The position numbers were made by a program, and so were the translations under genes. A stretch of DNA of 32,000 nucleotides from an uncultured Actinomycetes bacterium (GTDB lineage Bacteria > Actinomycetota > Actinomycetes > S36-B12 > CAIYMF01), in NCBI GenBank assembly GCA_963843975.1, contig CAWJMG010000003.1:750001-782000 (forward strand), written 5' to 3'. This document shows, piece by piece, positions 1,714 through 29,458 of the stretch (its first letter is position 1; the number at the start of each line of letters is the position of its first letter). Under the pieces are notes generated by a model, which did not search any database, was not told the origin of the DNA, and saw only the letters and a list, made by a program, of their open reading frames with translations.

Positions 1714-3085
1714 TCACATGCTCGCGATGAGCTTCTCGACGCGCTCGTCGACGGAACGGAACGGGTCCTTGCAGAGCACGGTGCGCTGCGCCTGGTCGTT
1801 GAGCTTCAGGTGGACCCAGTCGACGGTGAAGTCCCGGCGACGCTCCTGCGCCTTCTTGATGAACTCCCCGCGCAGCTTGGCCCGCGTGGTCTGCGGCGGC
1901 AGCGTCTTCGCCTCGAAGATCGGCAGGTCGCTGCTCACCCGTGCGACGGCACCGCGCTTCTCCAGCAGGTAGTAGAGGCCCCGGCTGCGGGTGATGTCGT
2001 GGTACGCGAGGTCCATCTGCGCGATGCGCGGGCTCGAGAGCGGCAGGTCGTGCTTGGCCATGTACCTCTCGAGCAGGCGCAGCTTGATGACCCAGTCGAT
2101 CTCGCGCTCGACGAGGCCGAGGTCGCCGGTCTCGACGGCGCGGACCGAGCGGGTCCAGAGGTCGAGGACCCGCGAGTGGATGCTGTCCGGGTCGCTCGTG
2201 AGGCCGCGGCGCTCGGCGAAGTCGCGAGCCCGGTCGAGGTACTCCGTCTGGATCTGCAGGGCCGACAGCTCGCGCCCGTTCGCCAGGCGGACCGTCTTGC
2301 GACCGGTCGGGTCGTGGCTGATCTCGCGGATGGCCCGGATCGGGTTCTCCAGCGTCATGTCGCGCAGCACCGAGCCGTGCTCGAGCATGCGCAGCACGAG
2401 GTCGGTGCTGCCCACCTTGAGCATCGTGGTGGTCTCGCTCATGTTGGAGTCGCCGACGATCACGTGCAGGCGCCGGTAGCGCTCGGCGTCCGCGTGGGGC
2501 TCGTCGCGGGTGTTGATGATGGGGCGTGACCGTGTGGTGGCGCTGGAGACGCCCTCCCAGATGTGCTCGGCCCGCTGGCTCACGCAGTAGACGGCTCCGC
2601 GGGGCGTCTGCAGCACCTTGCCGGCGCCGCAGACGATCTGGCGCGAGACGAGGAACGGGATGAGCGTGTCCGCGAGCTCGGAGAACTCGCCGTGGCGGCC
2701 CACGAGGTAGTTCTCGTGGCAGCCGTAGGAGTTGCCGGCCGAGTCGGTGTTGTTCTTGAACAGGTAGACGTCGCCGGCGATGCCCTCCTCCTGGAGGCGC
2801 TTCTCGGCATCGACCAGGAGGCCCTCGAGGATCCGCTCCCCCGCCTTGTCGTGCGTGACCAGCTCGGTGATCTGGTCGCACTCCGGAGTGGCGTACTCGG
2901 GGTGGCTGCCGACGTCGAGGTAGAGGCGGGCACCGTTGCGCAGGAAGACGTTGCTGCGAGCGGCCCCACGACACCACGCGGCGGAACAGGTAGCGGGCGA
3001 CCTCGTCCGGGGAGAGGCGCCGCTGCCCCCGGAAGGTGCAGGTGACGCCGTACTCGGTCTCGATCCCGAAGATCCGCCGGTCCAC
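1714..3085 (-). pseudogene. pafA: Pup--protein ligase PafA, frame interrupted by one extra base at about 2956 (pseudogene or sequence error)
   Basis: Codons 1-43 ([43 protein letters not shown]) lie in the frame of ORF 1364..3085. The rest ([26 protein letters not shown]...[14 protein letters not shown]) lies in ORF 1714..3141. Removing one base gives 456 aa, close to the ~452 aa I recall for mycobacterial PafA. Confidence 0.93.
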
Positions 3086-3165
3086 GTGGCCACCCTAGGC
3101 ACGAGTACGCCGGACGCGCAGTCCGGCGCGCACGGCGTCACGCACCAGTAACGAGCGACGTCCTG

Positions 3166-3913
3166 CTAGGCGGGATCGCCCGCGGCGTCGTCGCTGTCGT
3201 CGTCGACCCCGAGGAGGTCGGCGAGGCGGGGCCCGTTGATGCGGCGGAACTTCCGACGCGGCCGGGCCCGGTCGAGGATCGCGACCTCGAGCTGAGCCGG
3301 GGTGAGCACGCGCGTCTCGCCCTCGGCGCCGTTGCCGGCCACCGGCGCCGAGCCCAGCAGCTCGACTGCGAGCTGCAGCGCGGCCTCGAGCGACATCCCC
3401 TCGCTCCACCGCTCGCGCAGCGCCGTGGTGATCTGGTCGGCCGAGCCGCCCATCGCGACGAAGCCGTGCTCGTCCCCCACCGACCCGTCGAAGGTCAGGC
3501 GGTAGAGCTGGTCGTCGTGCACCGTCTCGCCGATCTCGGCGACGACGATCTCGACCTCGTACGGCTTCTGCGTCTCGGTGAAGATGGTGCCGAGGGTCTG
3601 GGCGTAGGCATTGGCGAGGCTGCGGCCGGTGACGTCGCGGCGGTCGTACGAGTAGCCGCGCAGGTCGGCCAGGCGCACGCCCGCGACTCGGAGGTTCTCG
3701 AACTCGTTGTACTTGCCGACCGCGGCGAAGGCGATGCGGTCGTAGATCTCGCAGATCTTGTGCAGCGCGCGGGAGCGGGTTCTCGGCGACGAACAGCAGT
3801 CCGTCGGCGTACTGAAGGACGATCACACTGCGGCCGCGGGCGATGCCCTTGCGCGCGTAGTCGGCCTTGTCCTTGATGACCTGCTCGGGCGAGACATAGA
3901 ACGGGACGCTCAT
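3166..3913 (-). pseudogene. prcA: Proteasome subunit alpha PrcA, frame interrupted by one extra base at about 3775
   Basis: [46 protein letters not shown] lies in ORF 3095..3913. It continues as [51 protein letters not shown]... in the frame of ORF 3166..3678. The repaired length is 248 aa. Confidence 0.93.
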
Positions 3914-3916
3914 GGC

Positions 3917-4778
3917 TCACTCCCCTCCGGCGGTCAGCGGCGCGTTGGGACCGTCCGGCCGGGTCTGGCGGGCGGCCACGACCGAGCGGACGAGCGGGTC
4001 GAGCTCGGCCTCGGAGAGGCGGCGGTAGCCGTCGACGTCGACCATCGCCACCACCGGCAGGATGCCGCGGGCGAGGTCGGGGCCGCCGGTGGCCGAGTCG
4101 TCGTCAGCCGCGTCGTACAGGCTCTCGATGACGACGCGCACGGCCTCGTCGGGCGTGAGGTCGTCGCGCCAGAGCTTCTTGAGCGCGCCCCGCGCGAAGA
4201 GGGATCCGGAGCCGACGCTGTGGTGGCGGTGCTCCTCGTACCGACCGCCGGTGACGTCGTAGCTGAAGATCCGGCCGCCGCTGGTCTCGGCGTCGTACCC
4301 CGCGAACAGGGGCACGACCGCGAGGCCCTGCATCGCCATGCCGAGGTTGCCGCGGATGCAGGGTCGCGAGGCGGTTGGCCTTGCCGTCGACCGAGAGCTG
4401 CGCGCCCTCGATCTTCTCGTAGTGCTCGAGCTCGACCTGGAACAGCTTCACCATCTCGACCGCGAGGCCTGCGGTGCCGGCGATGCCGACGCAGCTGGAC
4501 TCGTCCGCCGCGAAGACCTTCTCGATGTCCTTCTGCGCGATGATGTTGCCCATCGTGGCGCGGCGGTCGCCGGCCATGACCACGCCGCCCGCGAAGGTCA
4601 GCGCGACGATCGTGGTGCCGTGCACCGACTCGGGGACCGATCCCGCCGGGAGCGACCGGCCGCCCGGGAGCAGCGTGGGGTCGTGCGTGGCCAGGAACTC
4701 GGCGAAGGACGACGAACCCGTCGCGGTGAACGCCGACGACAGGGTGCCCCCGAACCGTCCCTGCTGCGCTGAGGTCAC
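3917..4778 (-). pseudogene. prcB: Proteasome subunit beta PrcB, frame interrupted by one extra base at about 4358
   Basis: ORF 4104..4778 holds the propeptide and the mature start (...VHG|[21 protein letters not shown]...[12 protein letters not shown]). It continues as [22 protein letters not shown]...[13 protein letters not shown] in ORF 3917..4339. The GTG start overlaps the pup stop (GTGA). The repaired length is 286 aa. Confidence 0.93.
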
Positions 4779-4990
4779 TGTCCGCCCTTCTGGACGAAGC
4801 CGCGGACGAACTCCTCGGCGTTGGTCTCGAGCGCCTCGTCGATGTCCTCGAGGATCGCGTCGATGTCGGCGTCGAGCGCCTCCTTGCGCTCGGCGAGGTC
4901 GCTCGTCGCAGCCGTGGTCTCCTCGACCTGGTCGACGTCGGCGTCCGTGCGGCTCTTGTGCGCGTGCTCGCCGGTGTCCCGGGTGGGCAT
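4775..4990 (-). CDS. pup: Prokaryotic ubiquitin-like protein Pup (71 aa, intact)
   Basis: [71 protein letters not shown]. It has the canonical C-terminal GGQ and sits between dop and prcB. The start is taken at the internal ATG (4988-4990) of ORF 4775..5050. Confidence 0.92.
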
Positions 4991-5153: not shown

Positions 5154-6670
5154 TCAGGTGTTCAGGGCGTGCAGGAGGTCGGCTGCCGTGGGGCTCGCGT
5201 CCAGCAGGGGGCCGACGGCTGCCCGGGTGCCGCGCAGGGGCTCGAGGGTGGGCACGCGCTGCAGCGCGTCGCGACCGGGCACGTCGAAGATGACCGAGTC
5301 CCACGACGCCGCGGCGACGTGGTCGGCGTACCGGCGCATGCACTCGCCGCGGAACCAGGCTCGCGTGTCGGCCGGCGGGTTGGCCACCGCGGCCTCGACC
5401 TCGGCGTCGGTCGTGATCCGCTCCAGGCTCCCCGCGCAGCTGCAGCCGCTGCGCCAGGCCCTTGTCGGGCCGCACGTCGCTGTACTGCAGGTCGACGAGG
5501 TGCAGCCGCGCGTGGTCCCACTCGATCTGGTCGCGCGAGCGGTAGCCCTCGAGGATCGCGAGCTTGGCGATCCAGTCGAGCTCGGACGACAGGCTCATCG
5601 GGTCGGTCTCGAGCCGGCCCAGCACCGACTCCCACCGGTCGAGGACGTCGGCCGTCTGCGCGTCGACGTCGTCGCCGAGGGTGTTCTCGACGTGCTTTCG
5701 TGCCTGCTCGAGGAACTCCATCTGCATCTGCACCGCGGTGATCCGCCGGCCCGACCGCAGCGTGAGCAGGTGCGTCAGCGACGGGTCGTGCGACACGCGG
5801 TGCATCTCGCGCACCGGCTCGTCGAGCACGGCGTCGATCTCGAGCGTGCCGGCCTCGATCATCGCGAGGACGAGCGAGGTGGTGCCCATCTTGAGGTACG
5901 TGGACACCTCGGCGAGGTTGGCGTCGCCCACGATCACGTGCAGCCGCCGGTACTTCTCCGGGTCTGCGTGCGGCTCGTCGCGCGTGTTGATGATCGGTCG
6001 CTTGAGCGTGGTCTCGAGGCCGACCTCGACCTCGAAGAAGTCGGCGCGCTGGGACACCTGGAACCCGTGGGTGCGGCCGTCCTGGCCGATGCCGACACGA
6101 CCGGCGCCCGTGACGACCTGGCGGGAGACGAAGAACGGCGTCAGGTGCCGCACGATCTCGGCGAACGGCGTGCTGCGCGCGCATGAGGTAGTTCTCGTGC
6201 GTGCCGTACGACGCGCCCTTGTTGTCGGTGTTGTTCTTGTAGAGGTTCACGGGCTGCGCGCCCGGGAGGTCTGCGGACGAGGTCGGTGGCGCGGGCCATG
6301 ATGCGCTCGCCGGCCTTGTCCCAGATCACGCCGTCGCGCGGGTTCGTCACCTCGGGGCTGGAGTACTCCGGGTGGGCGTGGTCGACGTACAGCCGCGCCG
6401 CCGTTGGTGAGGATGACGTTGGCCAGCCCGAGGTCGTCGTCGGTGAGCTGGCTCGGGTCGGCATCCGCCCGCGTCATGTCGAAGCCGCGTGCGTCGCGGA
6501 GCGGGTTCTCCTCGTCGTAGTCCCAGCGCGCGCGCGGGCGCCCCGCGCGACCGAGGCGGCGTACGACGTTGACCACCTGAGAGCTGCGTCATCATCGCGT
6601 TGACGTGCGGGTGCCCGGGCACCGAGACGCCGTACTCGGTCTCGATGCCCATCACGCGATGGACGCTCAC
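5154..6670 (-). pseudogene. dop: Pup deamidase/depupylase Dop, frame interrupted by five extra bases (about 6586, 6398, 6273, 6175, 5434)
   Basis: The segments run [28 protein letters not shown] / [36 protein letters not shown]...LANVILTNG / [41 protein letters not shown] / [31 protein letters not shown] / [28 protein letters not shown]...[19 protein letters not shown] / [29 protein letters not shown]...PTLEPLRGT. They lie in successive frames (ORFs 6347..6967, 6247..6576, 6141..6464, 5162..6250, 3934..6153, 5154..5387). The repaired length is 503 aa. Confidence 0.92.
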
Positions 6671-6684
6671 GTGGCACCGCCGCC

Positions 6685-8339
6685 TTAGAGGTACTGGCCG
6701 GTGTTGGCGACCGTGTCGATCGAGCGCCCTGCCTCGGTGCCCTGCTTGCCCTGGATGAGCGTGCGGATGAACACGATCCGCTCGCCCTTCTTGCCCGAGA
6801 TGCGGGCCCAGTCGTCGGGGTTGGTGGTGTTGGGCAGGTCCTCGTTCTCGCGGAACTCGTCGACGCAGGCGGCGAGCATGTGCTGCACGCGGATGCCGCG
6901 CTGGCCCGTGCTCGAGGAGGTCCTTGATCGCCATCTTCTTGGCGCGGGCCACGATGTTCTCGATCATCGCGCCGCGAGTTGAAGTCCTTGAAGTACAGGA
7001 CCTCCTTGTCGCCGTTGGCGTAGGTGACCTCGAGGAACCGGTTCTCCTCGGTCTCGGTGTACATCCGCTCGACGGCGCGCTGGATCATCCCGCGGCACGT
7101 CGCGACCGGGTCGCCACCGTGCTCGGCGAGGTCCTCGGGGTGCAGCGGCAGGTCGGGCGTCAGGTACTTGGTGAAGATGTCGCGCGCGCGCCTCGGCGTC
7201 GGGGCGCTCGATCTTGATCTTCACGTCGAGGCGGCCCGGGCGCAGGATCGCCGGGTCGATCATGTCCTCGCGGTTCGAGGCGCCGATGACGATGACGTTC
7301 TCGAGGCCCTCGACGCCGTCGATCTCGCTGAGCAGCTGCGGGACGATCGTGTTCTCGACGTCGCTGCGACACGCCCGAGCCACGGGTGCGGAAGAGCGAG
7401 TCCATCTCGTCGAAGAACACGATGACGGGCATGCCCTCGGACGCCTTCTCGCGCGCCCGCTGGAACACCAGCCGGATGTGCCGCTCGGTCTCGCCGACGT
7501 ACTTGTTGAGCAGCTCCGGGCCCTTGATGTTGAGGAAGAACGACCGCCCCTCGGCCTTCCCTTCGACCTCGGCGACCTTCTTGGCCAGCGAGTTGGCGAC
7601 GGCCTTGGCGATGAGCGTCTTGCCGCAGCCGGGCGGGCCGTAGAGCAGGATCCCCTTCGGCGGCTTGAGCTCGTGCTCGCGGAAGAGGTCGGCGTGCAGG
7701 TACGGCAGCTCGACGGCGTCGCGGATCTCCTCGATCTGCGCGGCGAGTCCGCCGATGTCGCCGTAGTCGATGTCCGGGACCTCCTCGAGGACGAGCTCCT
7801 CGACCTCGGCCTTCGGGATCTTCTCGAACACGTAGCTGCGAGCGCGCCTCGAGCAGCAGCGAGTCGCCGGCGCGCAGCGTGCGCGCCGATGAGAGGTGCT
7901 GCGAGGCGGACGACGCGCTCCTCGTCGGAGTGCGCGATCACCAGGGCGCGCTCGCCGTCCTCGAGGATCTCCTTGAGCATGACGATCTCGCCGTGACGCT
8001 CGAACTCGCGCGCCGCGACGACGTTGAGGGCCTCGTTCAGCACGACCTCCTGGCCGGGGCGCAGCTCGTCGGACGTCGACGCCGGGGCTGCACGACGACA
8101 CGCATCTTGCGGCCCGCGGTGAAGACGTCGACGGTGCCGTCGTCGAAGCGTTCGAGGAAGACGCCGTACCCGTTCGGCGGCTCGGCAAGCCGGTCGACCT
8201 CCTCCTTGAGCGCCACGATCTGGTCGCGGGCGTCCTTGAGGGTGGAGACCAGGCGCTGGTTCTGCGCGGACGCCGCCGCCAGCTCGCTCTGGAGCTGGGT
8301 GACGCGCGGATCCGGCGCGCGCTCGTCGGAGTACGTCAC
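6685..8339 (-). pseudogene. arc: Proteasome-associated AAA ATPase ARC/Mpa, frame interrupted by eight extra bases (about 8090, 8071, 7881, 7838, 7366, 7186, 6975, 6905)
   Basis: GTG start at 8339 preceded by GGGAGG. N-terminal coiled coil: [61 protein letters not shown]. Also present: Walker A GPPGCGKT, Walker [10 protein letters not shown], and a C-terminal ...TVANTGQYL (the proteasome-docking GQYL tail). The segments are spread over ORFs 8037..8834, 6964..8409, 7160..8188, 6474..7088, 6347..6967 and 6685..6888. The repaired length is 548 aa. Confidence 0.92.
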
Positions 8340-8512
8340 GGTGCTTACCTCCCGTGCGTCCGCCCCGGTGGGGTCCACCGCGGCTGGGCCGTTTCTCGAC
8401 CCTACCCACGTCGACCGGTTCTGCGCGCGCGCTGAGGGACGAGCCGCGCGTCGCAACGAAGACGTAACCCGCCGGGCACGCTGGCCAGACGTCCGGAATC
8501 CGTCCCGGCCGG

Positions 8513-9427
8513 CTACGTGGTGGGGAGCTCGTAGTCCTCGCCGTAGGCGCCCTTGGCTGGGCGGGTGCGGCGCGGGGGCAGCACCGTGCCGTCGGCGAGG
8601 CGGCGGCTGCGGATGAGGAAGCCGGTGTGGCCGTTCATCGTGTGGTCCGGGCGTACGGCGAGACCCTCGAGGTGCCACGTGCGCAGCAGCAGCTCCTGGG
8701 CGTAGGGCTCGGTCCAGCGGCCGTCCGTGCGCATGGTCTCGACGGTGCGCGACAGCTGGGTCGTGGTCGCGACGTACACGACCAGGACGCCGCCGGGGGT
8801 CAGCGCCTCGGCCGCCACCTCGACGCAGTCCCACGGCGCGAGCATGTCGAGCACGATGCGGTCGACGCCTGTGTCGAGGCCCTCGGCCATCCGGGCCCGC
8901 AGCGTCGGGACGAGGTCGCCGACGGTCAGCGACCAGGCCGGGTGCTCGGACCCGAAGAACGTCTCCACGTTGGTCTTGGCGACGTCGGCGAAGTCCTGCC
9001 GGCGCTCGTACGACGACAGCCCGCCCTGGTCGCCCACCGCACGCAGCAGGGAGATCGACAGCGCGCCCGAGCCGACGCCGGCCTCGATCACGCGCGCGCC
9101 GGGGTAGATGTCGGCCAGCCCGACGATCGCCGCCGCGTCCTTGGGGTAGACGATCGTGGCGCCCCGCGCCATCGACAGGACGAAGTCCGACAGCATCGGG
9201 CGCAGGGCGAGGTAGGGGACGCCCTGCGTCGAGCTGACGATCACACCCTCCGGGCCGCCGATGAGCTCGTCGTGCTTGATGGCGCCCTTGGCGGTGTGGA
9301 ACTCCTTGCCCGCGCCCAGCGTGATGGTGTGCATCCGCTTCTTGGGGTCGGTGAGCTGCACGCGCTCGCCCTCGCGGAGCGGGCCACGGCGGTTGTCGGC
9401 CCCGGTGGGGACGTGGTCGGAGGTCAC
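8513..9427 (-). CDS. trmI: tRNA (adenine(58)-N(1))-methyltransferase TrmI-like SAM-dependent methyltransferase
   Basis: Intact. Likely GTG start at 9427 ([37 protein letters not shown]...) within the longer ORF 8513..9712. SAM-binding motif [12 protein letters not shown]. Its position next to arc matches mycobacterial synteny. Confidence 0.85.
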
Positions 9428-12028: not shown

Positions 12029-12086
12029 CGGCCCGATCGGGCACGGCGGAGGGGTACGCCCCCGCGTCGCGGGTTAGCGTGGCGGG

Positions 12087-12831: not shown

Positions 12832-15384
12832 ATGCTGCGCGCCGCGCTCCGCTCGCTGCTGCAGCACAAGCTGCGGCTCTCGCTCACCCTGCTCGCCGTC
12901 GTCGTGGGCGTCGCCTTCGTCGCGGGCACCTACATCTTCACCGACTCGCTCAAGAAGTCCTTCGACGCGCTGTTCGACGCCCCTCAGCCCGACGTGTCCG
13001 TCTCGGTCGACACCGGGGTGCCGGTGGGTGGCGGCGGCGGCGCGCCGGGCGGGCTCGACCAGGCCCCGACCCTCGCCGAGTCACTGGTCGCCAAGGTCGC
13101 TGCGGTCGACGGCGTCGCCGCGGCGTACGGGTCGGTCGGCTCCGACGGTGCGCTGGTCATCGGCTCCGACGGCAAGGTCGTCGGCGAGAACGGCCCGCCT
13201 GCGAGAGGTGGCACGTTCATCGGGGACCCGGCGATCTCCGCGCTCACGATCGCCGCGGGCCGCGCGCCGTCCGGTCCGACCGAGGTCGCTCTGCTGGAGT
13301 CGACGGCCACCGCTGGCGCGATCTCGATCGGCGACACGGTCAGGATCGACACCCCGGCAGGCGGTCTCGTCGACCTCACGATGGTCGGCATCGTCACCCG
13401 CGGGATCTCCGGCAGCGACGGCAGCACCCTGGCCGTCTTCGACCTGCCGACCGCGCAGAAGCTCATGCTCGGCAAGGCCGACCGGGTCACGAGCATCGCG
13501 GTGCGCGCCGAGCCCGGCGTCGACCAGGACACCCTCGCCGCCAGCATCCAGAAGGTGCTCCCGAAGGGCACCAAGACCCAGACCGGTGCCCAGCGCAGCG
13601 CCGACATCGCCGAGCGGCTCGCGACCACGTTCCAGTTCATCAACACGTTCCTGCTGGCCTTCGCCTTCATCGCGCTCTTCGTGGCGATCTTCCTGATCTT
13701 CAACACGTTCTCGATGCTCGTGGCCCAGCGCACCCGCGAGCTCGCGCTGCTGCGCGCGGTCGGCGCGAGCCGGGGCCAGGTGCGGCGCTCGGTGCTGGCC
13801 GAGGCCGCTGTGCTCGGCCTGCTCGCAGCCATCCTTGGCGTGCTGGGCGGCATCCTGGTCTCCCAGGGGCTTCGCCTGCTGCTCAAGGGTTTCGGCGCCG
13901 ACCTCCCGGCGGCGCCACTGGTCATCGAGCCACGCACCATCGTCGTCTCCCTCGTCGTCGGGCTCGTCGTCACGCTCGTGTCGGCATACCTTCCGGCCCG
14001 GCGCGCCGGCGTCGTCCCGCCCGTGGCCGCCATGCGCGACGAGATCTCTCTGCCGGTGCGCTCGCTCCGTGTGCGGACGGCCCTCGGCGCGGTCCTGCTG
14101 ATCGCGGCAGCGGTGTCCGCATGGGTCGCCCTGCGCACCGTCGACGACGGCGAGCGCGCGGCGAGCCTCGCGGGAGTGTCCGCGCTCTGCGCCCTCATCG
14201 CCGTGATCGCCCTCGCACCGATGATCGGCCGCGCGGTGCTCGTGGTGCTGGCGGCGCCGTTCAGCGGGTCGACCATCGGGCGCCTTGCCCGTGAGAACGG
14301 CCGACGCAACCCGCGGCGCACCGCAGCGACCGCGAGCGCGCTCGCGATCGGGCTCGCCCTCATGAGCGCGATCGGCGTGATCGCCGCCTCGACCAAGGCG
14401 TCGGTGTCGGCCGTCATCGACGACACCATCGGCGCGGACTTCGTGGTCTTCGGCGTGAAGTTCCAGCCCTTCAGCCCGGACGTGTACGACGCCGTGAAGG
14501 ACACGCCTGGCACCCGCACGGTGACCTACGTGCGGCAGGTGCCGATCGAGGTCGAGGGCGACCGCACCGCGCTGACGGGCGTCGACCTCGGGGCGTTCCC
14601 CGACGTCGTCGACCTCACGATGCAGTCTGGTGCGGCCGTGCCGTCGCTCGGCCTGGGGCAGGCGATCGTCGACGACAAGACCGCCGCCGACCTGGGGCTG
14701 AAGGTGGGCGACACGGTCCCCGCGACGTTCGTGAACGGCAAGTCCACCCTGGCGCTGCGCGGCATCTACACCGCCGCCGGCCCGTACCAGGGGTGGATCA
14801 CCGGCCTGCCCACCCTCACCTCGATCGGCGCGCGCGAGCTCGACTCGGCCGTCTACATCCGCCTCGACGACGGCGCCGACCTCCCCGCCGTCCAGGCACA
14901 GCTCGAGTCCGAGCTCGAGGCGTTCCCCAGCGTCGCGCTGCAGGACCAGGCGAGCCTCAAGGACCAGATCGACAGCCAGTTCGACCGCGTCTTCGGCTTC
15001 ATCTACGCGCTGCTCGCGCTGGCGGTGATCGTGGCCTTCATCGGCATCGTCAACACGCTCGCCCTGTCGGTCCACGAACGGCGCCGCGAGGTCGGCCTGC
15101 TGCGCGCGGTGGGCACCTCACGCGCACAGGTCCGCCGCATGGTCGTGCTCGAGGCCGTCATGATCTCGGTCTTCGGCGCGGCGCTCGGAGTCGTGCTCGG
15201 CGTCGTCTACGGCTCGCTGCTGCAGAAGGTGCTCGAGCCGCAGGGCGTCACCGAGCTCGCGGTGCCCGTGGGCCAGATCGGCTGGTTCCTGCTCCTGGCC
15301 GTCGTCGGCGGCTTCGTCGCCGCGCTGTGGCCGTCGGTGACCGCGAGCCGGCTCGATGTGCTGAAGGCGATCGCGACCGACTGA
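12832..15384 (+). CDS. ABC transporter permease, FtsX/MacB-type with two FtsX domains (850 aa)
   Basis: Intact 2.55-kb ORF. It has two repeats of the FtsX-like 4-TM module (…LVAQRTRELALLRAVGASRGQVRRSVL… and …SVHERRREVGLLRAVGTSRAQVRRMVV…). Confidence 0.88.
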   Translation: MLRAALRSLLQHKLRLSLTLLAVVVGVAFVAGTYIFTDSLKKSFDALFDAPQPDVSVSVDTGVPVGGGGGAPGGLDQAPTLAESLVAKVAAVDGVAAAYGSVGSDGALVIGSDGKVVGENGPPARGGTFIGDPAISALTIAAGRAPSGPTEVALLESTATAGAISIGDTVRIDTPAGGLVDLTMVGIVTRGISGSDGSTLAVFDLPTAQKLMLGKADRVTSIAVRAEPGVDQDTLAASIQKVLPKGTKTQTGAQRSADIAERLATTFQFINTFLLAFAFIALFVAIFLIFNTFSMLVAQRTRELALLRAVGASRGQVRRSVLAEAAVLGLLAAILGVLGGILVSQGLRLLLKGFGADLPAAPLVIEPRTIVVSLVVGLVVTLVSAYLPARRAGVVPPVAAMRDEISLPVRSLRVRTALGAVLLIAAAVSAWVALRTVDDGERAASLAGVSALCALIAVIALAPMIGRAVLVVLAAPFSGSTIGRLARENGRRNPRRTAATASALAIGLALMSAIGVIAASTKASVSAVIDDTIGADFVVFGVKFQPFSPDVYDAVKDTPGTRTVTYVRQVPIEVEGDRTALTGVDLGAFPDVVDLTMQSGAAVPSLGLGQAIVDDKTAADLGLKVGDTVPATFVNGKSTLALRGIYTAAGPYQGWITGLPTLTSIGARELDSAVYIRLDDGADLPAVQAQLESELEAFPSVALQDQASLKDQIDSQFDRVFGFIYALLALAVIVAFIGIVNTLALSVHERRREVGLLRAVGTSRAQVRRMVVLEAVMISVFGAALGVVLGVVYGSLLQKVLEPQGVTELAVPVGQIGWFLLLAVVGGFVAALWPSVTASRLDVLKAIATD

Positions 15385-15403: not shown

Positions 15404-16101
15404 CTAGGAGCGCGGCGACCAGTCGTGCGACCAGGCGCCGAGCATCGCCGGCGTCACCTGCACCAGCGACTCGACCACGTGCAGGCCGTCGGTCCCCTCG
15501 ATCGGCACGAGCGACGGGATGGCCACGACCAGCGCCCCGCTGGCCACTCCGGCGGCGACGCCGGTGTGCGAGTCCTCCAGCACCACGCAGTGAGCGGGGT
15601 CGACGCCGATGCGCTCGGCGGCCAGGAGGTACGGGTCCGGGAACGGCTTGGTACGCTCCCCCTCGTCACCCGCCACCGAGGTCGCGAACATCTCGTGCCC
15701 GACCTCGTGCAGCACCGCGTCGTGCACGGCTTCGACGAGCCGGCGCCAGGACGCCGACACGAGCGCGCACGGCACCCCGGCGTCCTCGAGGGCGAGCAGC
15801 AGCTCGCGCGCCCCCGGGCACCACTCGACGGGTCGGGTGCGCAGGTTGCGCTCCATCGTGTCGAGCAGCTGGGCCATCATCTGCTCGTGCGTCAGGGCTC
15901 CGCCGGTGTGGCGCACCATGTAGTCGACCGCAGTCTCCAGGGGTCCGCCGACGAGCTGGGCCTGGTGGTCAGGCCCCCACTCGACGTCGAGCGCGGCCAT
16001 GATCTCGGCCTCGGCGTCGTACCAGAGGTCCTCGGTCTGCGACGAGGGTGCCGTCCATGTCGAACAGGACGGCGGCCGGCAGCAGGGTCAGGCTGTCGAG
16101 C

Positions 16102-16105
<4 letters not shown>
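15404..16105 (-). pseudogene. HAD-superfamily hydrolase (phosphatase-like), frame interrupted by one extra base at about 16039; 5' end uncertain
   Basis: ORF 15404..16000 holds the cap and motifs II-IV (…VSASWRR…, KPFPDPY, LEDSHTGVAAG). HAD motif I (AAVLFDMDGTLV) lies upstream in another frame. The junction is CTC GTC G[C]AG ACC GAG GAC. The only ATG (16103-16105, overlapping the metH stop as ATGA) is in a third frame, so a further lesion or an unusual start is needed. Confidence 0.75.
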
Positions 16106-19653
<3,548 letters not shown>

Positions 19654-19796: not shown

Positions 19797-20660
19797 GTGA
19801 TCGAGTTCGAGGGCCTCCCCGAGGCGCTGCCCGACCTCGTCAACCCCGTGATGCTGTGCGCGTTCGAGGGCTGGAACGACGCCGGCGACGCCGCGAGCGG
19901 TGCGGTGCTCCACCTCGAGGAGGTCTGGGGCGCCACGCAGATCGCCGAGATCGACCCCGAGGACTACTACGACTTCCAGGTGAACCGTCCCGAGATCGTG
20001 ATGGAGGACGGCAAGCGCGAGGTCGTCTGGCCGACCACGCGGCTCTCGGTCGCCCGGATCCCCCTCGCCACCCGCGACGTCGTCCTGGTGCACGGCATCG
20101 AGCCGTCGATGCGCTGGCGCACCTTCACCGCCGAGCTCCTGGGTGCGGCCCGCGACCTCGGCGTCGAGATGGTCGTCACCCTCGGCGCTCTGCTCGCCGA
20201 CAGCCCGCACACCCGGCCGGTCCCGGTGAGCGGCACGTCGAGCGACCCCGACATCGCGCTGCGGATGGGCTATGAGCCGTCGTCGTACGAGGGGCCGACC
20301 GGCATCGTCGGCGTGCTGCAGGACGCCTGCGCCAGCGCCGGCATCCCCGCGGTGTCGCTCTGGGCCGCAGTCCCCCACTACGTCGCGCAGCCGCCGCACC
20401 CGAAGGCCACGCTCGCGCTGCTCGGGCGCATCGAGGACCTCCTCGACGTCCCCGTGCCGCTCGGCGACCTCCCCGAGGAGGCCAAGGCCTGGCAGCTCGG
20501 CGTGGACGAACTCGCGGCCGAGGACGACGAGATCGCGGCGTACGTGCGCACCCTCGAGGAGGCCGTCGACACCGCAGAGCTCCCCGAGGCCAGCGGCGAC
20601 GCGATCGCGCGGGAGTTCGAGCGCTACCTGCGCCGCAGGAACGTCGAGCCCCCGAAGTAG
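19797..20660 (+). CDS. PAC2 (proteasome assembly chaperone 2-like) family protein, 287 aa
   Basis: Intact ORF with a GTG start. NPVMLCAFEGWNDAGDAASGAV...GPTGIVGVLQDACASAGIPAVSLWAAVPHYV is typical of actinobacterial PAC2-family proteins. It is divergent from metH, as I recall for the mycobacterial orthologue. Confidence 0.8.
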   Translation: MIEFEGLPEALPDLVNPVMLCAFEGWNDAGDAASGAVLHLEEVWGATQIAEIDPEDYYDFQVNRPEIVMEDGKREVVWPTTRLSVARIPLATRDVVLVHGIEPSMRWRTFTAELLGAARDLGVEMVVTLGALLADSPHTRPVPVSGTSSDPDIALRMGYEPSSYEGPTGIVGVLQDACASAGIPAVSLWAAVPHYVAQPPHPKATLALLGRIEDLLDVPVPLGDLPEEAKAWQLGVDELAAEDDEIAAYVRTLEEAVDTAELPEASGDAIAREFERYLRRRNVEPPK

Positions 20661-20670
20661 CGGCCCGCGG

Positions 20671-22338
20671 TCAACGGCCGCGGAGGCTGCGGTAGCGCAG
20701 GGCCAGCGCGGCAGTGCTCGGGTCGAAGTGCGCGAGGTCCGGGACGTCGTCGCTCGTCAGCGCGGGCAGCAGCTGGCCGGCCATCACCTTGCCGAGCTCC
20801 ACGCCCCACTGGTCGAACGGGTTCACGCCCCACACCACGCCCTGGGTCAGGACGAGGTGCTCGTAGAGGGCGACCAGCGTGCCGAGCGCGTACGGCGTCA
20901 GCGTCTCCAGCATGAGCGTGGTCGACGGCCGGTTGCCCGGCATCACCTTGTGCTCGACCAGCTCCTCGGGGACGCCGTCCGCGCGGACCTCGTCGGCGGT
21001 GCGGCCGAAGGCCAGAACGTGCGCCTGTGCGAGCACGTTCGAGATGAGCTTGTCGTGGTGGTCGCCGACGCCGTTGACGGGCTCGGCGAACAGGATGAAG
21101 TCGCTCGGCACGAGCGTCGTCCCCTGGTGCAGCAGCTGGTAGAACGAGTGCTGCCCGTTCGTGCCCGGCTCACCCCACCAGATGGCGCCGGTGTCGACAC
21201 CGACCGGGGCGCCGTCGAGCGTCACCCTCTTGCCGTTGCTCTCCATCGTGAGCTGCTGCAGGTACGCCGGGAAGCGCTCGAGATACTGCTCGTACGGCAG
21301 CACCACGTGGGTCTGCGCACCGAAGAAGTCGCGGTACCAGACGCCGAGCAGCCCCATGAGGACCGGCAGGTTGCGGTCGAGGTCGGTGTGGCCCAGGTGC
21401 TCGTCCATCGCGTGGAAGCCGGCGAGCATGTCGTGGAAGGCGGTCGGGCCGACGGCCAGCATGAGCGAGAGACCGATGGCCGAGTCCATCGAGTAGCGCC
21501 CGCCGACCCACTCCCAGAAGCCGAACATGTTCGCGGTGTCGATGCCGAACCGCTCGACCGCGTCGGCGTTGGTCGAGACGGCGACGAAGTGCTTGGCCAC
21601 GTCGGCATCCGGTCCAAGACCGGAGACCAGCCACGAGCGCGCGGTGAGCGCGTTGGTCATGGTCTCCTGGGTGGTGAAAGTCTTGCTCGACACGATGAAC
21701 AGAGTCGTGGCCGGGTCGAGGTCGCGGGTGGCCTCCACGATGTCCGTGCCGTCGACGTTGCTGACGAAGCGGAACGCGATGTCCCGCCGCGAGTAGTGCC
21801 GGAGCGCGCGATAGGCCATCACGGGGCCGAGGTCGGAGCCGCCGATCCCGATGTTCACGACGGCCTCGATCGGCTTGCCGGTGGTGCCTGTCCACTCACC
21901 AGAGCGCACCCGGTCGCAGAACGCGGACATCTGGTCGAGAACAGCGTGCACCTGGGCGACGATGTCCACGCCGTCGACGAACACCGACGACCCGCGCGGC
22001 ATGCGCAGCGCATGGTGCAGCACCGAGCGGTTCTCGGTGGTGTTGATGCGCGCGCCCGTGGCCATGGCGTCGATGCGCTCAGGCAGGCCCCGCTCCTCGG
22101 CCAGCCGGACGAGCAGCGAGAGCGTCTCATCGGTCACGAGGTGCTTGGACAAGTCGGCGTGGATCCCGGCGGCGTCCACGGTGATGCGGGTCGCCCGTCC
22201 ACGGTCCTCCGCGAAGAGCTGCCGGATGGTCCGGTCGCCCCACGCGGCCCGGTGGGCGGTCAGGTCGGCCCAGGCCGCCGCCGAGGTCACGGGCCCCTGC
22301 TCGGTACGCCAGTCCTCGGTCACGTCACCCTCCACCAC
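20671..22338 (-). CDS. pgi: Glucose-6-phosphate isomerase
   Basis: Intact 555-codon ORF. Motifs: [54 protein letters not shown]. The exact start is uncertain (GTG at 22338, 22335 or 22323). Confidence 0.93.
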
Positions 22339-22432
22339 TCGCCGCTCGGGACGATCTGCCGTCCCCTAGTCTCCTTCCACGACCCTACCGAGGGCCTCTG
22401 TGCCGTCGGACCCCGCACGCACGACGAAGGGC

Positions 22433-23473
22433 ATGACGATGGCCACGCAGTCCCCCCTGCAGATCGGCATGGTCGGCCTCGGCCGCATGGGCGCGGGGCT
22501 CGTCCGCCGCCTGATGCGCGACGGACACTCCTGCGTCGTGTTCGACGTCAACCCGGACGCCGTTGCCGCCCTGGTCGCCGACGGCGCCACCGGTGCGGAC
22601 TCGTACGCGGACCTCGCCGCCAAGCTCACCGGCCCGCGCGCGGTCTGGATCATGGTGCCCGCCGGCGCCATCACCGAGTCGACGGTGACGGCCGTGGCCG
22701 AGCACCTCGAGGCCGGGGACACGATCATCGACGGCGGCAACTCGTACTACCGCGACGACATCCGGCGTGCGGCCGAGCTAGGTGCGAAGGGGATCCACTA
22801 CCTCGACGTCGGCACGTCCGGCGGCGTCTACGGCCTCGAGCGCGGCTTCTGCCTGATGCTCGGCGGCGACACCGGCGCCGTCACCCGTCTCGCACCCGTG
22901 TGGCAGACCATCTCCCCCGGCGTCGAGACCGCGCCGCGCACGCCGGGCCGCACCGGCGACATCACCCCCGAGGAAGAGGGCTGGCTGCACTGCGGGCCGG
23001 CCGGTGCCGGCCACTTCGTGAAGATGGTCCACAACGGCATCGAGTACGGCGCCATGGCGGCGTACGCCGAGGGCCTCAACATCCTGGCCAATGCCAACGA
23101 GGGCCTGCGCACCCGCGCCCAGGACGCCGAGACCGCGCCGCTCGACCACCCCGAGTTCTACTCGTACGAGATCGACATCCCGGCCGTCACCGAGGTGTGG
23201 CGCCGGGGCTCGGTGGTCGCCTCCTGGCTGCTCGACCTCACCGCCGCCGCCCTGGTCGAGTCGCCGCAGCTCGAGGAGTTCTCGGGCCGCGTGTCCGACT
23301 CCGGCGAAGGCCGCTGGACTGCCATCGCTGCGATCGAGGAGGGCGTCCCCGCGCCCGTCCTCACGGCCGCGCTCTACCAGCGGTTCTCGAGCCGCGGCAA
23401 CGCGACGTACGCCGACAAGGTGCTGTCGGCCATGCGCAAGCAGTTCGGCGGCCACCACGAGAAGAAGGACTGA
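22433..23473 (+). CDS. gnd: 6-phosphogluconate dehydrogenase (decarboxylating), short-form
   Basis: ATG at 22433 preceded by GAAGG. Rossmann motif IGMVGLGRMGAGL, then IIDGGNSYYRDD, then GTSGGVYGLERGFCLMLGG. The longer ORF 22400..23473 contains it. Confidence 0.88.
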   Translation: MTMATQSPLQIGMVGLGRMGAGLVRRLMRDGHSCVVFDVNPDAVAALVADGATGADSYADLAAKLTGPRAVWIMVPAGAITESTVTAVAEHLEAGDTIIDGGNSYYRDDIRRAAELGAKGIHYLDVGTSGGVYGLERGFCLMLGGDTGAVTRLAPVWQTISPGVETAPRTPGRTGDITPEEEGWLHCGPAGAGHFVKMVHNGIEYGAMAAYAEGLNILANANEGLRTRAQDAETAPLDHPEFYSYEIDIPAVTEVWRRGSVVASWLLDLTAAALVESPQLEEFSGRVSDSGEGRWTAIAAIEEGVPAPVLTAALYQRFSSRGNATYADKVLSAMRKQFGGHHEKKD

Positions 23474-23479
23474 CCGCCC

Positions 23480-24823
23480 TCACCAGCTGAAGCGGTCGCG
23501 CCCGGCGTTCTTGGCCCGGAAGAGGGCCTCGTCTGCACGTCGGACGAGGTCGTCGACGCCGCCGATCCCGTCGTCCCGGACGAGGCCAACGCTCACGCTG
23601 AGCGGTCCGGCGTCGTCGACCCGGAGCGACCGCACGCCGTCGAGAACGGCGGACGCGCGGTGCTCGACCGCCGAGATGTCGGGCGACGCGCGCAGCGCCA
23701 GCACGAACTCGTCACCACCCGTGCGGGCGACCATGTCGTCGTCGCGCACGGCGCGGGACAGCACCCTGGCCACCGCCGCGAGCACCCGGTCCCCGACCGC
23801 GTGGCCGTAGGTGTCGTTCACGCCCTTGAAGTGGTCGACGTCGACATAGAGGACGGCCAGCCCGCGATCGGCGAGGCGTGACTGCGCGATCTGCGCACGC
23901 AGCCAGGCGTAGGCGCTGTCGCGGTTGAGCAGACCTGTGAGCCCGTCATGGTGGGCCATGTGGGCCAGGGCCTCGCGGCGCACGACGTCGGCGTGCACGT
24001 CGCGAAAGGAGACGAGGACACCGTAGTCCTCGCCCTTCGGCCCGCGCATGACGCGCCACACCGCGTTCATCCAGAGCAGGTCGCCGTCCGCGGTGCGCAG
24101 GCGCAGCTCCTCCCGCCCCGACGTCTCGTCGGCGTCCATGAGGGCGCGTGCCCGCGCCCTCGCGGTCTCGCGGTCGAGGTGGTGCACGAGGTCGACCACG
24201 GGTGTGCCCAGGATCCGCTCGGGGTCCCAGCCCAGCACCTCGCGCACCGAGGGCGAGGCCCACTGCACTGTTCCGTCGGTGCCCGCCTCGAGGATGACGT
24301 CGCTCGAGCTCTCGACCATGGCACGCAGCCGCTCGCTCTGCGCTGCCGACTCACGGGCCATGGTGCGGTACGACCGGATCAGCCTCTGCGTCGCCCGGCG
24401 TCCCGCCGGGGTCTCGGACACGTCCCGGAACGTCGCCATCACGCCGAGGGGCTTGTCGTGCTCGTCGAGCAGCAGGTCGGTGTCGATCTCGAGCCAGACG
24501 AACGTCCCGACGTCGTCCGGCGTCGACGCCTCGACGCCCATCGCGAACCCGCGTACCGGGAGGCCGGTGGCCAACGTCCTCATGGACGGGTGCTCCTCGC
24601 CCGGGATGTCCGAGCCCTCGGGCGAGCACGCCTGCCAGCGCGGGTCGAGCGAGCTGACGCCCGTGACGTCGTCCCAGGTCTGGTGCAGGAGCGCCAGCCC
24701 CAGGTCGTCGGCACCGACGATCCTGCCGAGCACGTCCTGCACGACCTGGCCCTCGCCGGGCGCCGCCTCGATGGCCGACGCCGCACGTCGGAGCGCCTCG
24801 TCCACCCCCGGATCCCAGCGCAT
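23480..24823 (-). CDS. Sensor diguanylate cyclase (N-terminal PAS/GAF-like sensor region, PAS, GGDEF)
   Basis: Intact 447-aa ORF. The C-terminal GGDEF domain has an intact active site (DGLTGLLNR...VDVDHFKGVNDTYGH..ARTGGDEFVLAL). A PAS-like segment is AGTDGTVQWASPSVREVLGWDPERILG. Confidence 0.85.
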   Translation of the reverse strand: MRWDPGVDEALRRAASAIEAAPGEGQVVQDVLGRIVGADDLGLALLHQTWDDVTGVSSLDPRWQACSPEGSDIPGEEHPSMRTLATGLPVRGFAMGVEASTPDDVGTFVWLEIDTDLLLDEHDKPLGVMATFRDVSETPAGRRATQRLIRSYRTMARESAAQSERLRAMVESSSDVILEAGTDGTVQWASPSVREVLGWDPERILGTPVVDLVHHLDRETARARARALMDADETSGREELRLRTADGDLLWMNAVWRVMRGPKGEDYGVLVSFRDVHADVVRREALAHMAHHDGLTGLLNRDSAYAWLRAQIAQSRLADRGLAVLYVDVDHFKGVNDTYGHAVGDRVLAAVARVLSRAVRDDDMVARTGGDEFVLALRASPDISAVEHRASAVLDGVRSLRVDDAGPLSVSVGLVRDDGIGGVDDLVRRADEALFRAKNAGRDRFSW

Positions 24824-24923
24824 CGCGCCCAGCCTCTCCCCGCCGCTGTGGTCACGACGACCCTAGCGACGACCACCGGGGCGTAGCAGCGCGAAGATCG
24901 CGGCTACCGCAGCCGGGCCGGGA

Positions 24924-26162
24924 TCAGAGCGTGACGCCGAGGAGCGCCTCGGCGAGGTCGCGCACGACCGCACCGGCAGCGGCGTCCTCATGTCCCGCTG
25001 CCCCGCCGCGCAGGCGCGTGGCCTCGGACCAGCGGTCGATGGCCGCGAGGGCACCGGGGGCGTCGAGGTCGTCGGCGAGGCAGGCGCGGACCTCGGAGAG
25101 CACGTCGTCCGCGGGCGCTGAGAGCGGCGCGGCCACAGCCTCGCGCCACGCGGCGAGCCGTGCCTCGGCCTCAGCCAGGCCCGCGTCGGTCCAGTCCCAG
25201 TCGTGGCGGTAGTGGTTCGCGAGGATCGCGAGCCTGATCGCGGCCGGGTCGGTGCCGGCGAGGCGGATCTTCGAGACGAACGCCAGGTTGCCCTTGGACT
25301 TGCTCATCTTCTCGCCGTCGAGCCGCACCATGCCGGCGTGCGTGTAGTGCCGGGCGTACGGCCACGCACCGGTCGCGACGTGGGCCTCGGACGCACCCAT
25401 CTCGTGGTGCGGGAACGCGAGGTCGCTGCCGCCGCCCTGCACGTCGAGGGGTGAGGCGAGGTGGTCCAGCGCGATGGCCGTGCACTCGATGTGCCAGCCG
25501 GGGCGGCCGCGGCCGAACTGGCTGTCCCACGCCGGCTCCCCCGGCCGCTCGAGCTGCCACAGGAGGCAGTCGAGAGGGTGCTGCTTGCCCGCGCGGTCGG
25601 GGTCGCCGCCCCGCTCGGAGAAGATCTCGAGCATGCGGTCGAGGTCGAGCCCGGCGACCGAGCCGAACCGCTGGTCGGCGTGCACCCGGAAGTAGAGGTC
25701 GCCGTCGACCGAGTAGACCGCACCGGCAGACTGCAGCTTCTCGATGTAGGACAGCACGGCGGGGATCGACTCGACCGCGCCGATGTAGTGCTTGGGCGGC
25801 AGGACGTGCAGAGCCGTCATGTCCTCGCGGAAGAGCTGGGTCTCGCGGTCGGCGAGGGCCATCCAGTCGTCGCCGGTGTCGAGGGCGCGCGCGAGCAGCG
25901 GGTCGTCGACGTCGGTGACGTTCTGCACGTAGTCGACCTCGTGGCCGGCGTCGAGCCACACGCGCTGGACGAGGTCGAACGTGATGTAGGTGGCCGCGTG
26001 GCCGATGTGGGTCGCGTCGTACGGCGTGATCCCGCAGACGTAGATGCGGGCCACCGGACCGGGCGCGGTCGGGCGCACCTCTCCGGTGGACGTGTCGTGC
26101 AGGCGCAGCGGGAGCCCGTGCCCCGGCAGCGTCGGGACGTCAGGGGCAGTCCATGCTCGCAT
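24924..26162 (-). CDS. mshC: Cysteine--1-D-myo-inosityl 2-amino-2-deoxy-alpha-D-glucopyranoside ligase (mycothiol biosynthesis)
   Basis: Intact 412-aa ORF with a class I tRNA-synthetase-like fold. HIGH-type motif ([14 protein letters not shown]) and KMSKS ([10 protein letters not shown]). The N-terminus [29 protein letters not shown] is typical of MshC rather than CysS. Confidence 0.9.
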
Positions 26163-26226
26163 GGGCGCGATCCTATGCGCGCTGCGCCGTGGCCACCCGG
26201 GCGGTGCCTCGACCGTGGCGGACAGC

Positions 26227-27053
26227 TCAGAACGCGGGCCAGGGCAGCGACGGCCAGCCGTCGCCCGGCAGCGGGTGCGCGCCCTCGCGGATGCGCCGCA
26301 TGACCCGCTGCTTGGTGCGCGCGAGCTCGCGTCGCGTGAGCAGCTCCGACACCTCGGTGCCGAGGTCGCCGTCGAGGGCGTCGAGGAGCCGCTCGAGATC
26401 GTCGGACATCCCCTCGTCGAGCGGCTCGCCCGCCCAGCCCCACAGGACCGTGCGCAGCTTCTCGTCCTCGCTGAAGGTCACTCCGTGGTCGACGCCGTAC
26501 GTGCCGAGGTCGGCGCCGTCCTGCACGCGTCCGCGGAGCACGTGACCGCCCTTGCGGTCGGCGTTGTTGACCAGCGAGTCGAAGACCGACATCCGGCGCA
26601 GGTCGGCGTCGTCGGCGTGCACCAGCGTGACGGGCCGCCCGCCCTCGCCGTGCGCGTCGATGACCTCGAGCCAGCCCGTCGGGACCAGGCCGCGGTCCAC
26701 GACGTCCACCAGGCCCCCGCCCGGCTCCATCTCTCCCCCGCCGTCCGGCGTGACCCACGCCTGCGCCATGCCCTGGCCGAAGGGTCCCTCGTCGCGCCAC
26801 ACGGTCGGCGGGACGAGGTGCCACCCGAGCGCGTCGCTGACGGCGTACGCCGCGACCTCGCGCATCCCGAGCGTGCCCTCGGGGAAGTCCCACAGCGGGC
26901 GCTCCCCGGCCGTCGGCTTGTAGACGGCCGTCAACGTGACCCCCTCGAGGACGCAGCTGGTCAGGAGCGTGGCGTTGCTCGCGTCGACCAGACGGCCCTC
27001 GACCGTCAGCGCCCCGTGCCGCAGCACCTCGAGCAGGTCGTCGTGGGTCAGCA
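26227..27053 (-). CDS. SCO1664-family protein (PI3/PI4-kinase-like fold, function unknown)
   Basis: GTG at 27053, 5 nt after the DUF3090 stop, inside ORF 26227..27192. Kinase-like catalytic-loop sequence [16 protein letters not shown] followed by GVDHGVTF. Confidence 0.72.
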
Positions 27054-27616: not shown

Positions 27617-27652
27617 CCGCCGACCCTATCCCGGGCCCGTCGCGGGTGCCTT

Positions 27653-28378
27653 TCAGTGCGGTGAGGCGCCGGAGCCGCCGCCGACGACCGCGTCCGAGCT
27701 GGCCGCCTTCGAGCGCCGCCCCGGCTTCTTCTTCGGCGGCACGAGCCCTGCGACGTCGCCCCCGGTGTCGTTCTGCCGCAGGACGAACGGGCGCAGATCG
27801 GTGTACCTGACGACCGTGACCGAGCACGGGTCGATCGCGATGCGCTGGAAGGAGTCGAGGTGCATCCCGAGCGCGTCCGCGACGATCGCCTTGATGACGT
27901 CTCCGTGCGAGACGACGGCATACGTCACGTCGGGCCCGTGCTCCGCCGTGAGCCGTGCGTTCCAGTCGCGCACGGCGGCGACCGCGCGCGCGGACATGTC
28001 CGCGAGGCCCTCGCCCTCGGGGCCGGGGAAGACCGCAGCGCTCGGGTGGCTCTGCACCACCTTCCACAACGGCTCCTTGGCGAGGGTCTTCAGCTCGCGG
28101 TTGGTCCAGTCGCCGTAGCGGCACTCCCCCACGCGCTCGTCGACGTGCAGGGCGGGCAGCGGGTCTCGTCCTGCCAGCAGGTGCTCGGAGGTCTCGCGGG
28201 TGCGCTCGAGCGGGCTCGTGACGACCGCGGCCAGCGGCACGGGCAGGAGGCGGGCGCCGACGGCCGCGGCCTGGGTGCGGCCGACATCGTCCAGCGAGAT
28301 GCCCGGGGTCCAGCCGGCGAGGACGCCGCCCGCGTTCGCCGGGGTGCGGCCGTGCCGCACGAGGATCACCGTGGCCAT
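27653..28378 (-). CDS. Histidine phosphatase superfamily protein (MSMEG_4193-type putative phosphomutase)
   Basis: Intact 241-aa ORF with the RHG catalytic motif at the N-terminus (TVILVRHGRTPANAGGVLAGW). A second His motif is VVSHGDVIKAI. Confidence 0.8.
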   Translation of the reverse strand: MATVILVRHGRTPANAGGVLAGWTPGISLDDVGRTQAAAVGARLLPVPLAAVVTSPLERTRETSEHLLAGRDPLPALHVDERVGECRYGDWTNRELKTLAKEPLWKVVQSHPSAAVFPGPEGEGLADMSARAVAAVRDWNARLTAEHGPDVTYAVVSHGDVIKAIVADALGMHLDSFQRIAIDPCSVTVVRYTDLRPFVLRQNDTGGDVAGLVPPKKKPGRRSKAASSDAVVGGGSGASPH

Positions 28379-28428
28379 GCGCCGACCCTACGGGCCTCCG
28401 GGTCTTCTGGCCCGTGGGCTGACACGAT

Positions 28429-29458
28429 GTGGTGGTGATCAGAGGAGTAGGGCTCTACTGCGACGGCAAGCCGCGGCCGGACGGCGTCGTGCCGATCGTC
28501 GCCGGCACCTCCTTCGACGAGGCCGACGCCCGCGTGCTCGCCTCGCTCTGGCAGGAGGCCAAGGACGCCGGGCCCGCCAGCTTCGTCTGGCTCGGCCTGC
28601 GCAACGTCGACCACGACGAGCTCGACCCGCGCGGCCGACGTCCTCGGGCTCGACGAGCTCCTCGTCGAGGACGCCCTGTCGGTCACTCAGCGTGCGAAGG
28701 TCGAGGTGGACGGCGACCGCGTGACCGCCGTGTTCAAGATCCTCGGCTACGTCGAGGCGACGTCCGACGTCGAGACCGGGCAGATCGCGGTCTTCGTCGG
28801 CCCGTCGTTCGTGCTGTCGGTGCGCATGGGCGAGCCCGGCGACCTGCGCGACATGCGAGCACGGCTCGAGGGCGACACCGAGCTGCTCGCGGCCGGGCCC
28901 CTGGCGGTGCTGCACGGCATCCTGGACGTCGTCGTCGACGGGTACACGGTCGTGGCGGAGGAGCTCGGCGTCGACATCGAGCAGGTCGAGGAGCAGGTCT
29001 TCTCCCCCGTCCGCACCGACGATGCCGAGACCATCTACAAGCTCAAGCGCGAGAACCTCGAGCTGCGCCGCGCGGTCGAGCCCCTGACCCCGGTGGCCGA
29101 CGACCTGCTGCGGGGACAGCTCATCGAGATCCCCGACGTGCTCCGGCCTTACTACCGTGATCTGGGCGACCACCTCCTGCGCGCGAGCGACCTGTCCACC
29201 CAGCACGACAACCTGCTCGGCGCCGCGCTGGAGGCCTCGCGCTCGCGCCAGGCGGTTCAGCAGAACGAGGACATGCGCAAGATCTCGGCCTGGGTCGCCA
29301 TCGCCGCGATCCCCACCGCCATCGCGGCGATCTACGGCATGAACTTCCAGGACATGCCCGAGCTGCGCTGGGAGTTCGGCTACCCCGCGGTGATGATCGT
29401 GATCGGCGGCAGCATGTTCGCCCTCTACCGCGCCTTCAAGCGCAGCGGCTGGCTCTAG
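28429..29458 (+). pseudogene. corA: CorA-family Mg2+/Co2+ transporter, frame interrupted by one extra base at about 28630
   Basis: ORF 28429..29160 gives MVVIRGVGLYCDGKP...FVWLGLRNVDHDELDP. It continues as AADVLGLDELLVEDALSVTQRAKVEVDGDRVTAVFKILGY... in ORF 28706..29458, ending with the YGMNF (GMN) motif and two TM helices. The repaired length is 342 aa. Confidence 0.88.

Follow-up and report, generated by a model that had tools for sequence, protein, structure and literature searches.

When genes decay in the course of genome reduction, substitutions and stop codons accumulate, deletions predominate, and genomes of the same species share the damage; in pseudogenisation of the Mycobacterium leprae type, frameshifts disrupt a large number of conserved genes. 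Homopolymer-length errors of the 454, Ion Torrent and Nanopore R9 platforms likewise fragment well-conserved genes by single-base insertions or deletions (indels), with deletions being frequent and homopolymer runs the place where they occur. For the diploid Trypanosoma brucei, Cosentino et al. (2021) reported that the collapsing of alleles in a PacBio assembly produced indel or complex errors with apparent frameshifts, which were gone after correction or phasing (PMC8445201). We analyzed a stretch of 32,000 nucleotides (nt) from an uncultured Actinomycetes bacterium (contig CAWJMG010000003.1, positions 750,001 to 782,000; the whole stretch is called the window here), in which 47 single-base insertions and 2 deletions interrupt pafA, prcA, prcB, dop, arc, the gene of a HAD hydrolase, metH and corA. 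Our data suggest that the extra bases are very probably a consensus artefact, for which reads of two related populations would have been collapsed, probably in a metagenomic long-read assembly. As in the T. brucei case, a mosaic consensus of two haplotypes would have resulted in indel errors that truncate open reading frames (ORFs), but T. brucei is a diploid eukaryote, whereas in the window the second haplotype would stem from a strain or relative that co-occurs with the source organism, and the T. brucei study holds nearby variants and repeat-length differences responsible and does not contain the tandem-allele signature that we describe below (PMC8445201). The many frameshift-interrupted conserved genes are shared with M. 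leprae-type decay, but there is no excess of substitutions in the window, the ratio is 47:2 toward insertions, and both alleles of a variable site are found in tandem. In contrast to the homopolymer-length errors of sequencing platforms, only 3 of 46 insertions are in runs of three or more identical bases.

The inventory of the lesions was obtained by two alignment methods, which agreed in the 47 insertions and 2 deletions. The window was aligned block by block to 2–8 relatives with MAFFT, and columns were listed in which the window alone has a base or a gap; furthermore, orthologues of Longivirga aurantiaca were used as queries in our own implementation of a frameshift-aware protein-to-DNA alignment. 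An earlier reading of the letters and ORFs, the sequence-only reading, had already arrived at 47 insertions and 2 deletions, and both methods reproduced its positions with an offset of at most about 5 nt: the orthologue alignments change frame at these sites, and the insertions are gaps in all of the 2–8 relatives aligned, with two closely spaced pairs in metH (16525/16538 and 18167/18174) appearing as 2-nt gaps in the MAFFT alignment. The ORFs of L. aurantiaca are uninterrupted, and the orthologues in all relatives are read in a single frame. A frame plot of the G+C content at third codon positions showed a coding phase that steps repeatedly in the regions 5.4–8.4 kb and 16.0–19.7 kb and is steady elsewhere.

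Beyond the lesions known from frame tracking, 3–4 additional ones were found in dop and at the 5′ end of the HAD gene. The dop gene contains a further insertion at about 6569 and, at about 6540, a (GC)n tract extended by two nucleotides; together they are frame-neutral and were therefore invisible to frame tracking. Between 6540 and 6575, the relatives split by a compensated indel into two allele classes, GTCA-CGTCGTAC versus GTCAACGCC-TAC, and the window sequence at 6569 is a chimera of these two classes; the (GC)n tract just downstream of the chimera site is 2 nt longer than in L. aurantiaca and the relative L002. The base added at 6569 is an A, and the earlier statement that only G or C had been inserted therefore holds for the 47 insertions it was made for but not for this additional one. 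In the HAD gene, the second lesion (−1 or +2) throws the DMDGT motif out of frame with the ATG, and this accounts for the 5′ end that the sequence-only reading could not place.

After correction of the frame, proteins of orthologue-like length were obtained, as had been anticipated: PafA with 456 amino acids (aa; Pfam Pup_ligase match 1–441 of 441), PrcA with 248 aa (94.9% identity to L. aurantiaca) and PrcB with 286 aa (both with a Pfam Proteasome match), Dop with 501–503 aa (93% identity to L. aurantiaca, Pup_ligase match 1–440 of 441), ARC with 551 aa (Pfam Prot_ATP_ID_OB_N, Prot_ATP_ID_OB_C and AAA), MetH with 1174–1175 aa (94% identity to L. aurantiaca, up to 90% to database relatives, which carry all five MetH Pfam domains), and CorA with 342 aa (Pfam CorA match 2–292 of 292). 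The corrected HAD protein matches HAD_2 over 1–177 of 178 positions, and the Pfam matches of the corrected proteins are all full length. For PrcA, PrcB, Dop, ARC and MetH, the identity to L. aurantiaca after correction is in the range of 88.5–95%. This species is the closest relative in the genome collection, being collinear with 2822–23476 at 87% nucleotide identity, and the next relatives are several 'Nanopelagicales'/Actinomycetota metagenome-assembled genomes (MAGs) at 78–90%. No same-species sequence closer than 87–90% identity was found in the genome-collection scan, the metagenome scan or the protein search with the corrected MetH, and look-ups of identical proteins for three intact genes of the window (the ABC permease, the 412-aa gene at 24924–26162 and the 349-aa ORF at 30299–31348) gave no hit. 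Defining a window-specific substitution as a column in which all relatives agree and the window alone differs, we found that such substitutions are not elevated: they are at most as frequent inside the clusters as outside, and at most as frequent as the singletons of L. aurantiaca, L003 and L008 in the same bins. The initial impression of frameshifts without substitution decay thus proved right, as there are neither excess substitutions nor, once the frame is corrected, in-frame stops, and the relaxed constraint that marks a true pseudogene was not seen.

The inserted bases are far from random. In only 10 of 46 cases was the inserted base identical to a flanking base, whereas 55% would be expected from the local composition (p = 5e-6), and this depletion of homopolymer context disfavors replication slippage as well as homopolymer-type platform error. 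Instead, 30 of the 45 events pair the inserted base with a neighbor such that both are alleles found among the relatives in a single variable column, whereas an analytic null predicts 16.6% (p = 9e-14). The placement of gaps was controlled for by deleting the metH insertions, re-inserting random bases of the same composition and re-aligning, which was done 25 times; tandem alleles were obtained in 25.5% of the simulated cases (189/742; maximum 12/30), as compared with 20/30 observed in metH. At the codon level, almost all events take the form of a four-base 'codon' from which two sensible codons can be read, mostly of the type XX[GC] or XX[CG], such as TC[GC], CT[CG], GG[CA] and CA[TC]. At position 2956 in pafA, the window has TC[GC]AGC where relatives have TCG or TCC, at position 4359 in prcB it has CT[GC] where they have CTC or CTG, and at a site with GTG in the relatives, the GATCG of the window is GTG (Val) and ATC (Ile) interleaved. 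Several events are found at first or second codon positions of variable residues. The tandem pairs are C/G in 24 of 30 cases, versus 58% C↔G among the natural substitutions in the same blocks (p = 0.01), and transition-type pairs are scarce (2/30 versus 22%; p = 0.026).

The same signature was detected in an independent genome among the relatives, the public Microflora Danica long-read MAG MFD09730.bin.2.34 (contig_1292; L016). In 12 kb, about 86 indels specific for this MAG and not a multiple of three were counted, namely 77 insertions versus 9 deletions, with insertions and deletions amounting to 10/2 in arc, 20/3 in the ABC-transporter region and 47/4 in the metH block. Its single-nucleotide insertions (n = 76) consist of both alleles in 58% of cases versus 22% under the null (p = 9e-12), and they equal a neighbor in 32% versus 58% expected (p = 3e-6); in the same tests, the window gave 64% versus 22% and 25% versus 57%, respectively. 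In the isolate-derived L. aurantiaca genome and in short-read MAGs, there are 0–3 such indels per block. Like the window, L016 is therefore characterized by a dominance of insertions, a mostly non-homopolymer context, and inserted bases that form the two alleles of relatives with their neighbors. The two differ in that the errors of L016 extend through all genes examined, whereas those of the window are found in two clusters and few isolated events. Microflora Danica MAGs are based on Nanopore reads, which were assembled by Flye (--meta --nano-hq) followed by a single round of Medaka, and the authors pointed out that consensus quality is lower at low coverage and that microdiversity plays a role (PMC12313526). 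L016 also has a frameshift near the C-terminus of corA, at about 22250–22300.

Because tandem alleles are found at variable columns and homopolymers are avoided, we favor a consensus into which two populations were collapsed. Reads from two related populations, either strains or co-occurring close relatives, would have piled up over the conserved dop–arc and metH regions, as such stretches would be the places where long reads of a related population still align. For a likelihood- or graph-based consensus, 'XY, with each read missing one' may be cheaper than 'X, with half of the reads substituted', and both alleles would then be written in tandem, giving a +1 insertion, or, rarely, neither of them, giving a −1 deletion. 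A mixture of AAG and CGG would be compatible with the deletion at 18512, where the window has CG in place of AAG. G/C differences would be favored, presumably since read-error models regard G↔C substitutions as the least likely. We infer both which technology the reads came from and at which step of consensus building the errors arose. The local consensus error that the sequence-only reading had preferred is well in line with our data, as orthologues are intact, substitutions are not in excess, the insertion:deletion ratio is extreme, and L016 has the same signature. Its example of a cause, noise from low depth or gap filling alone, does not account for insertions that avoid homopolymers and sit as allele tandems at variable columns.

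Several points weigh against the collapse of two populations. We found no paper that describes the conversion of a single-nucleotide polymorphism (SNP) into a tandem insertion by a consensus of the DAGCon or partial-order alignment type, and the mechanism is our own proposal. Simple adjacency to third codon positions is not significantly enriched (33/44 versus 2/3). About one third of the events do not have both alleles among the relatives, which at 80–90% identity serve as a proxy for within-sample variants, and a few events are at invariant codons (ATG|TGG, 16738). Some 500-nt bins that are equally conserved (12500, 20000–21000, 23000) are free of events, and conservation alone is insufficient to fix the error locations. 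As to a contaminating lineage, the comparison of 'extra' and 'aligned' alleles across the relatives is one in which the progressive alignment forces the aligned base toward the closest clade.

Random residual insertion errors in a single genotype, resulting from low-depth noisy long reads or gap filling with raw reads, would also be compatible with the strong insertion bias, the positional clusters and the absence of a substitution excess, and the poorer consensus of low-coverage Nanopore MAGs is well known (PMC12313526; PMC9262707). However, noise of this kind predicts that about 55% of insertions match their neighbor, and 22% do; it predicts about 17–25% allele tandems, and 64–67% are observed; and homopolymers, which platform noise usually favors, are depleted here. 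We therefore regard random noise as rather unlikely. Programmed recoding, by which ribosomal frameshifting or transcriptional slippage would restore the proteins, may come to mind as the protein sequence runs on without a gap in a different frame at every junction, but up to 31 shifts would be required in one gene, the junction contexts are heterogeneous and share no common slippery motif, and the orthologues of all relatives are in one frame. Because these orthologues are intact, recoding is effectively refuted, and its probability is negligible.

It is also very improbable that the indels are real and reflect a recent loss of the Pup-proteasome, MetH, the HAD hydrolase and CorA by pseudogenisation or by a localised insertion-mutagenesis. 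Two points are in favor of this, namely that the bases are present in the submitted sequence and that lesions accumulate in an operon with a coherent function (pafA-prcAB-pup-dop-arc), but the 47:2 insertion bias together with the avoidance of homopolymers is the reverse of slippage-driven bacterial indels, and the lack of substitution decay and of in-frame stops after correction speaks against it. Moreover, gene boundaries are ignored, as the HAD gene and metH are hit jointly and pup is untouched, and the unrelated MAG L016, which came from an error-prone pipeline, shows the pattern in all genes including the ABC-transporter region. The inserted bases match alleles of other lineages, and the recent localised insertion-mutagenesis that had been offered as an alternative is not supported, since a mutational process cannot know the alleles of relatives. 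For real extra bases, an undescribed process would have to be postulated by which mismatches in heteroduplexes, left by recombination with a diverged donor, become +1 tandem insertions, and to it we assign hardly any probability; if it were true, a living lineage would have had its Pup-proteasome operon and metH inactivated. In a milder reading, the bases are artefactual but the clusters mark genuine tracts in which strains or species are mixed, and both alleles of each SNP could then be read straight from the consensus. The collapsed consensus that we favor is not a biological feature, and it comprises no biological novelty.

The distribution of the lesions follows position rather than genes. 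Of the 49 events, 46 are concentrated in regions that make up 29% of the sequence aligned (p = 1e-21), and the positional, not gene-wise, clustering described before was evident in that the HAD gene and metH are affected jointly, with pup being spared inside the operon. The number of events per 500-nt bin correlates with the nucleotide identity averaged over eleven relatives (Spearman 0.53, p = 4e-5; window positions 2500–29500), and no other stretches with a cross-lineage identity of about 87–92% are as long as dop–arc and metH. No coding frameshift was found in the control stretches 1–1713, 8525–9400, 10050–15400, 20675–23460 and 24930–26650. This agrees with the coding sequence that had been regarded as untouched, for which about 15 kb were aligned with zero lesions, and with the gene of an ABC permease that had been named as unbroken: window-specific 1-nt coding indels are absent from 10050–15400, and the permease has 88% aa identity to L. 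aurantiaca over residues 1–850. Two other causes of the clusters were considered and rejected. The G+C content of the window is about 71%, and regions free of lesions, pgi among them, reach values just as low or just as high; nor does gene function account for the pattern, in view of the joint hits in HAD and metH and of the intact pup.

The coordinates of the affected genes and of intact genes are compiled in the table below. The start of the HAD gene overlaps the metH stop codon (ATGA, 16102–16105), and this coupling is kept in L. aurantiaca (L001) and L002–L007, whereas in L008 the HAD gene apparently begins 8 nt upstream in a different frame.

Table. Genes with and without lesions in the window (window coordinates; the two alleles in tandem are given in square brackets)
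Gene	Product	Coordinates	Strand	Lesions or remarks
pafA	Pup ligase	1714..3085	−	one insertion at 2956
prcA	proteasome alpha subunit	3166..3913	−	one insertion at 3777
prcB	proteasome beta subunit	3917..4778	−	one insertion at 4359
pup	71 aa, GGQ C-terminus	4775..4990	−	intact within the affected stretch; Pfam Pup, 84 bits
dop	depupylase	5154..6664	−	net +5: insertions at 5428, 6181, 6271, 6396, 6586
arc/mpa	proteasomal AAA ATPase	6685..8348	−	eight insertions: 6910, 6975, 7190, 7367, 7835, 7877, 8073, 8090
	ABC permease	12832..15384	+	internal control, no frame break
	HAD-family hydrolase	15404..16105	−	insertion at 16039–16040 (window C[GC]A) and second lesion at about 16090–16100
metH	cobalamin-dependent methionine synthase	16102..19653	−	29 inserted bases between 16378 and 19555; deletions at 18041 and 18512
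	412 aa	24924–26162		intact gene, labelled mshC by the sequence-only reading
corA	Mg2+ transporter	28429..29458	+	one insertion at about 28627–28630, window CC[GC]
	349 aa	30299–31348		intact ORF

The region 1–1713, downstream of pafA, contains two intact genes resembling FKBP-type peptidyl-prolyl isomerases, which were assigned by sequence motifs only and one of which has a lipoprotein-like signal, as well as the start of a pafB-like helix-turn-helix gene. Window-specific length differences of 1–2 nt, apparently intergenic, are found at 3913, 4993, 11099 and 26216; the former two are immediately upstream of the start codons of prcA and pup, respectively, and the latter two were located from ORF coordinates only. 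These differences could be natural variation or further artefact. A segment of 1.45 kb (23477–24923), which encodes an intact 447-aa diguanylate cyclase with PAS and GGDEF domains, is missing from L. aurantiaca, where the alignment jumps from 23476 to 24924, and is present in L002.

In summary, the value of our finding is in quality control. The signature of clustered non-homopolymer +1 insertions in long conserved genes, which place two alleles, mostly G and C, in tandem at variable sites, separates consensus errors of collapsed populations from random read noise and from true pseudogenes without access to the reads, and it could be used to flag or automatically correct long-read MAGs. At face value, the sequence would lead to an annotation of the genome without a functional Pup-proteasome, cobalamin-dependent methionine synthase and CorA, which would skew metabolic and evolutionary inference for a poorly sampled actinobacterial lineage, and the recognition of the lesions as artefacts averts this misannotation.

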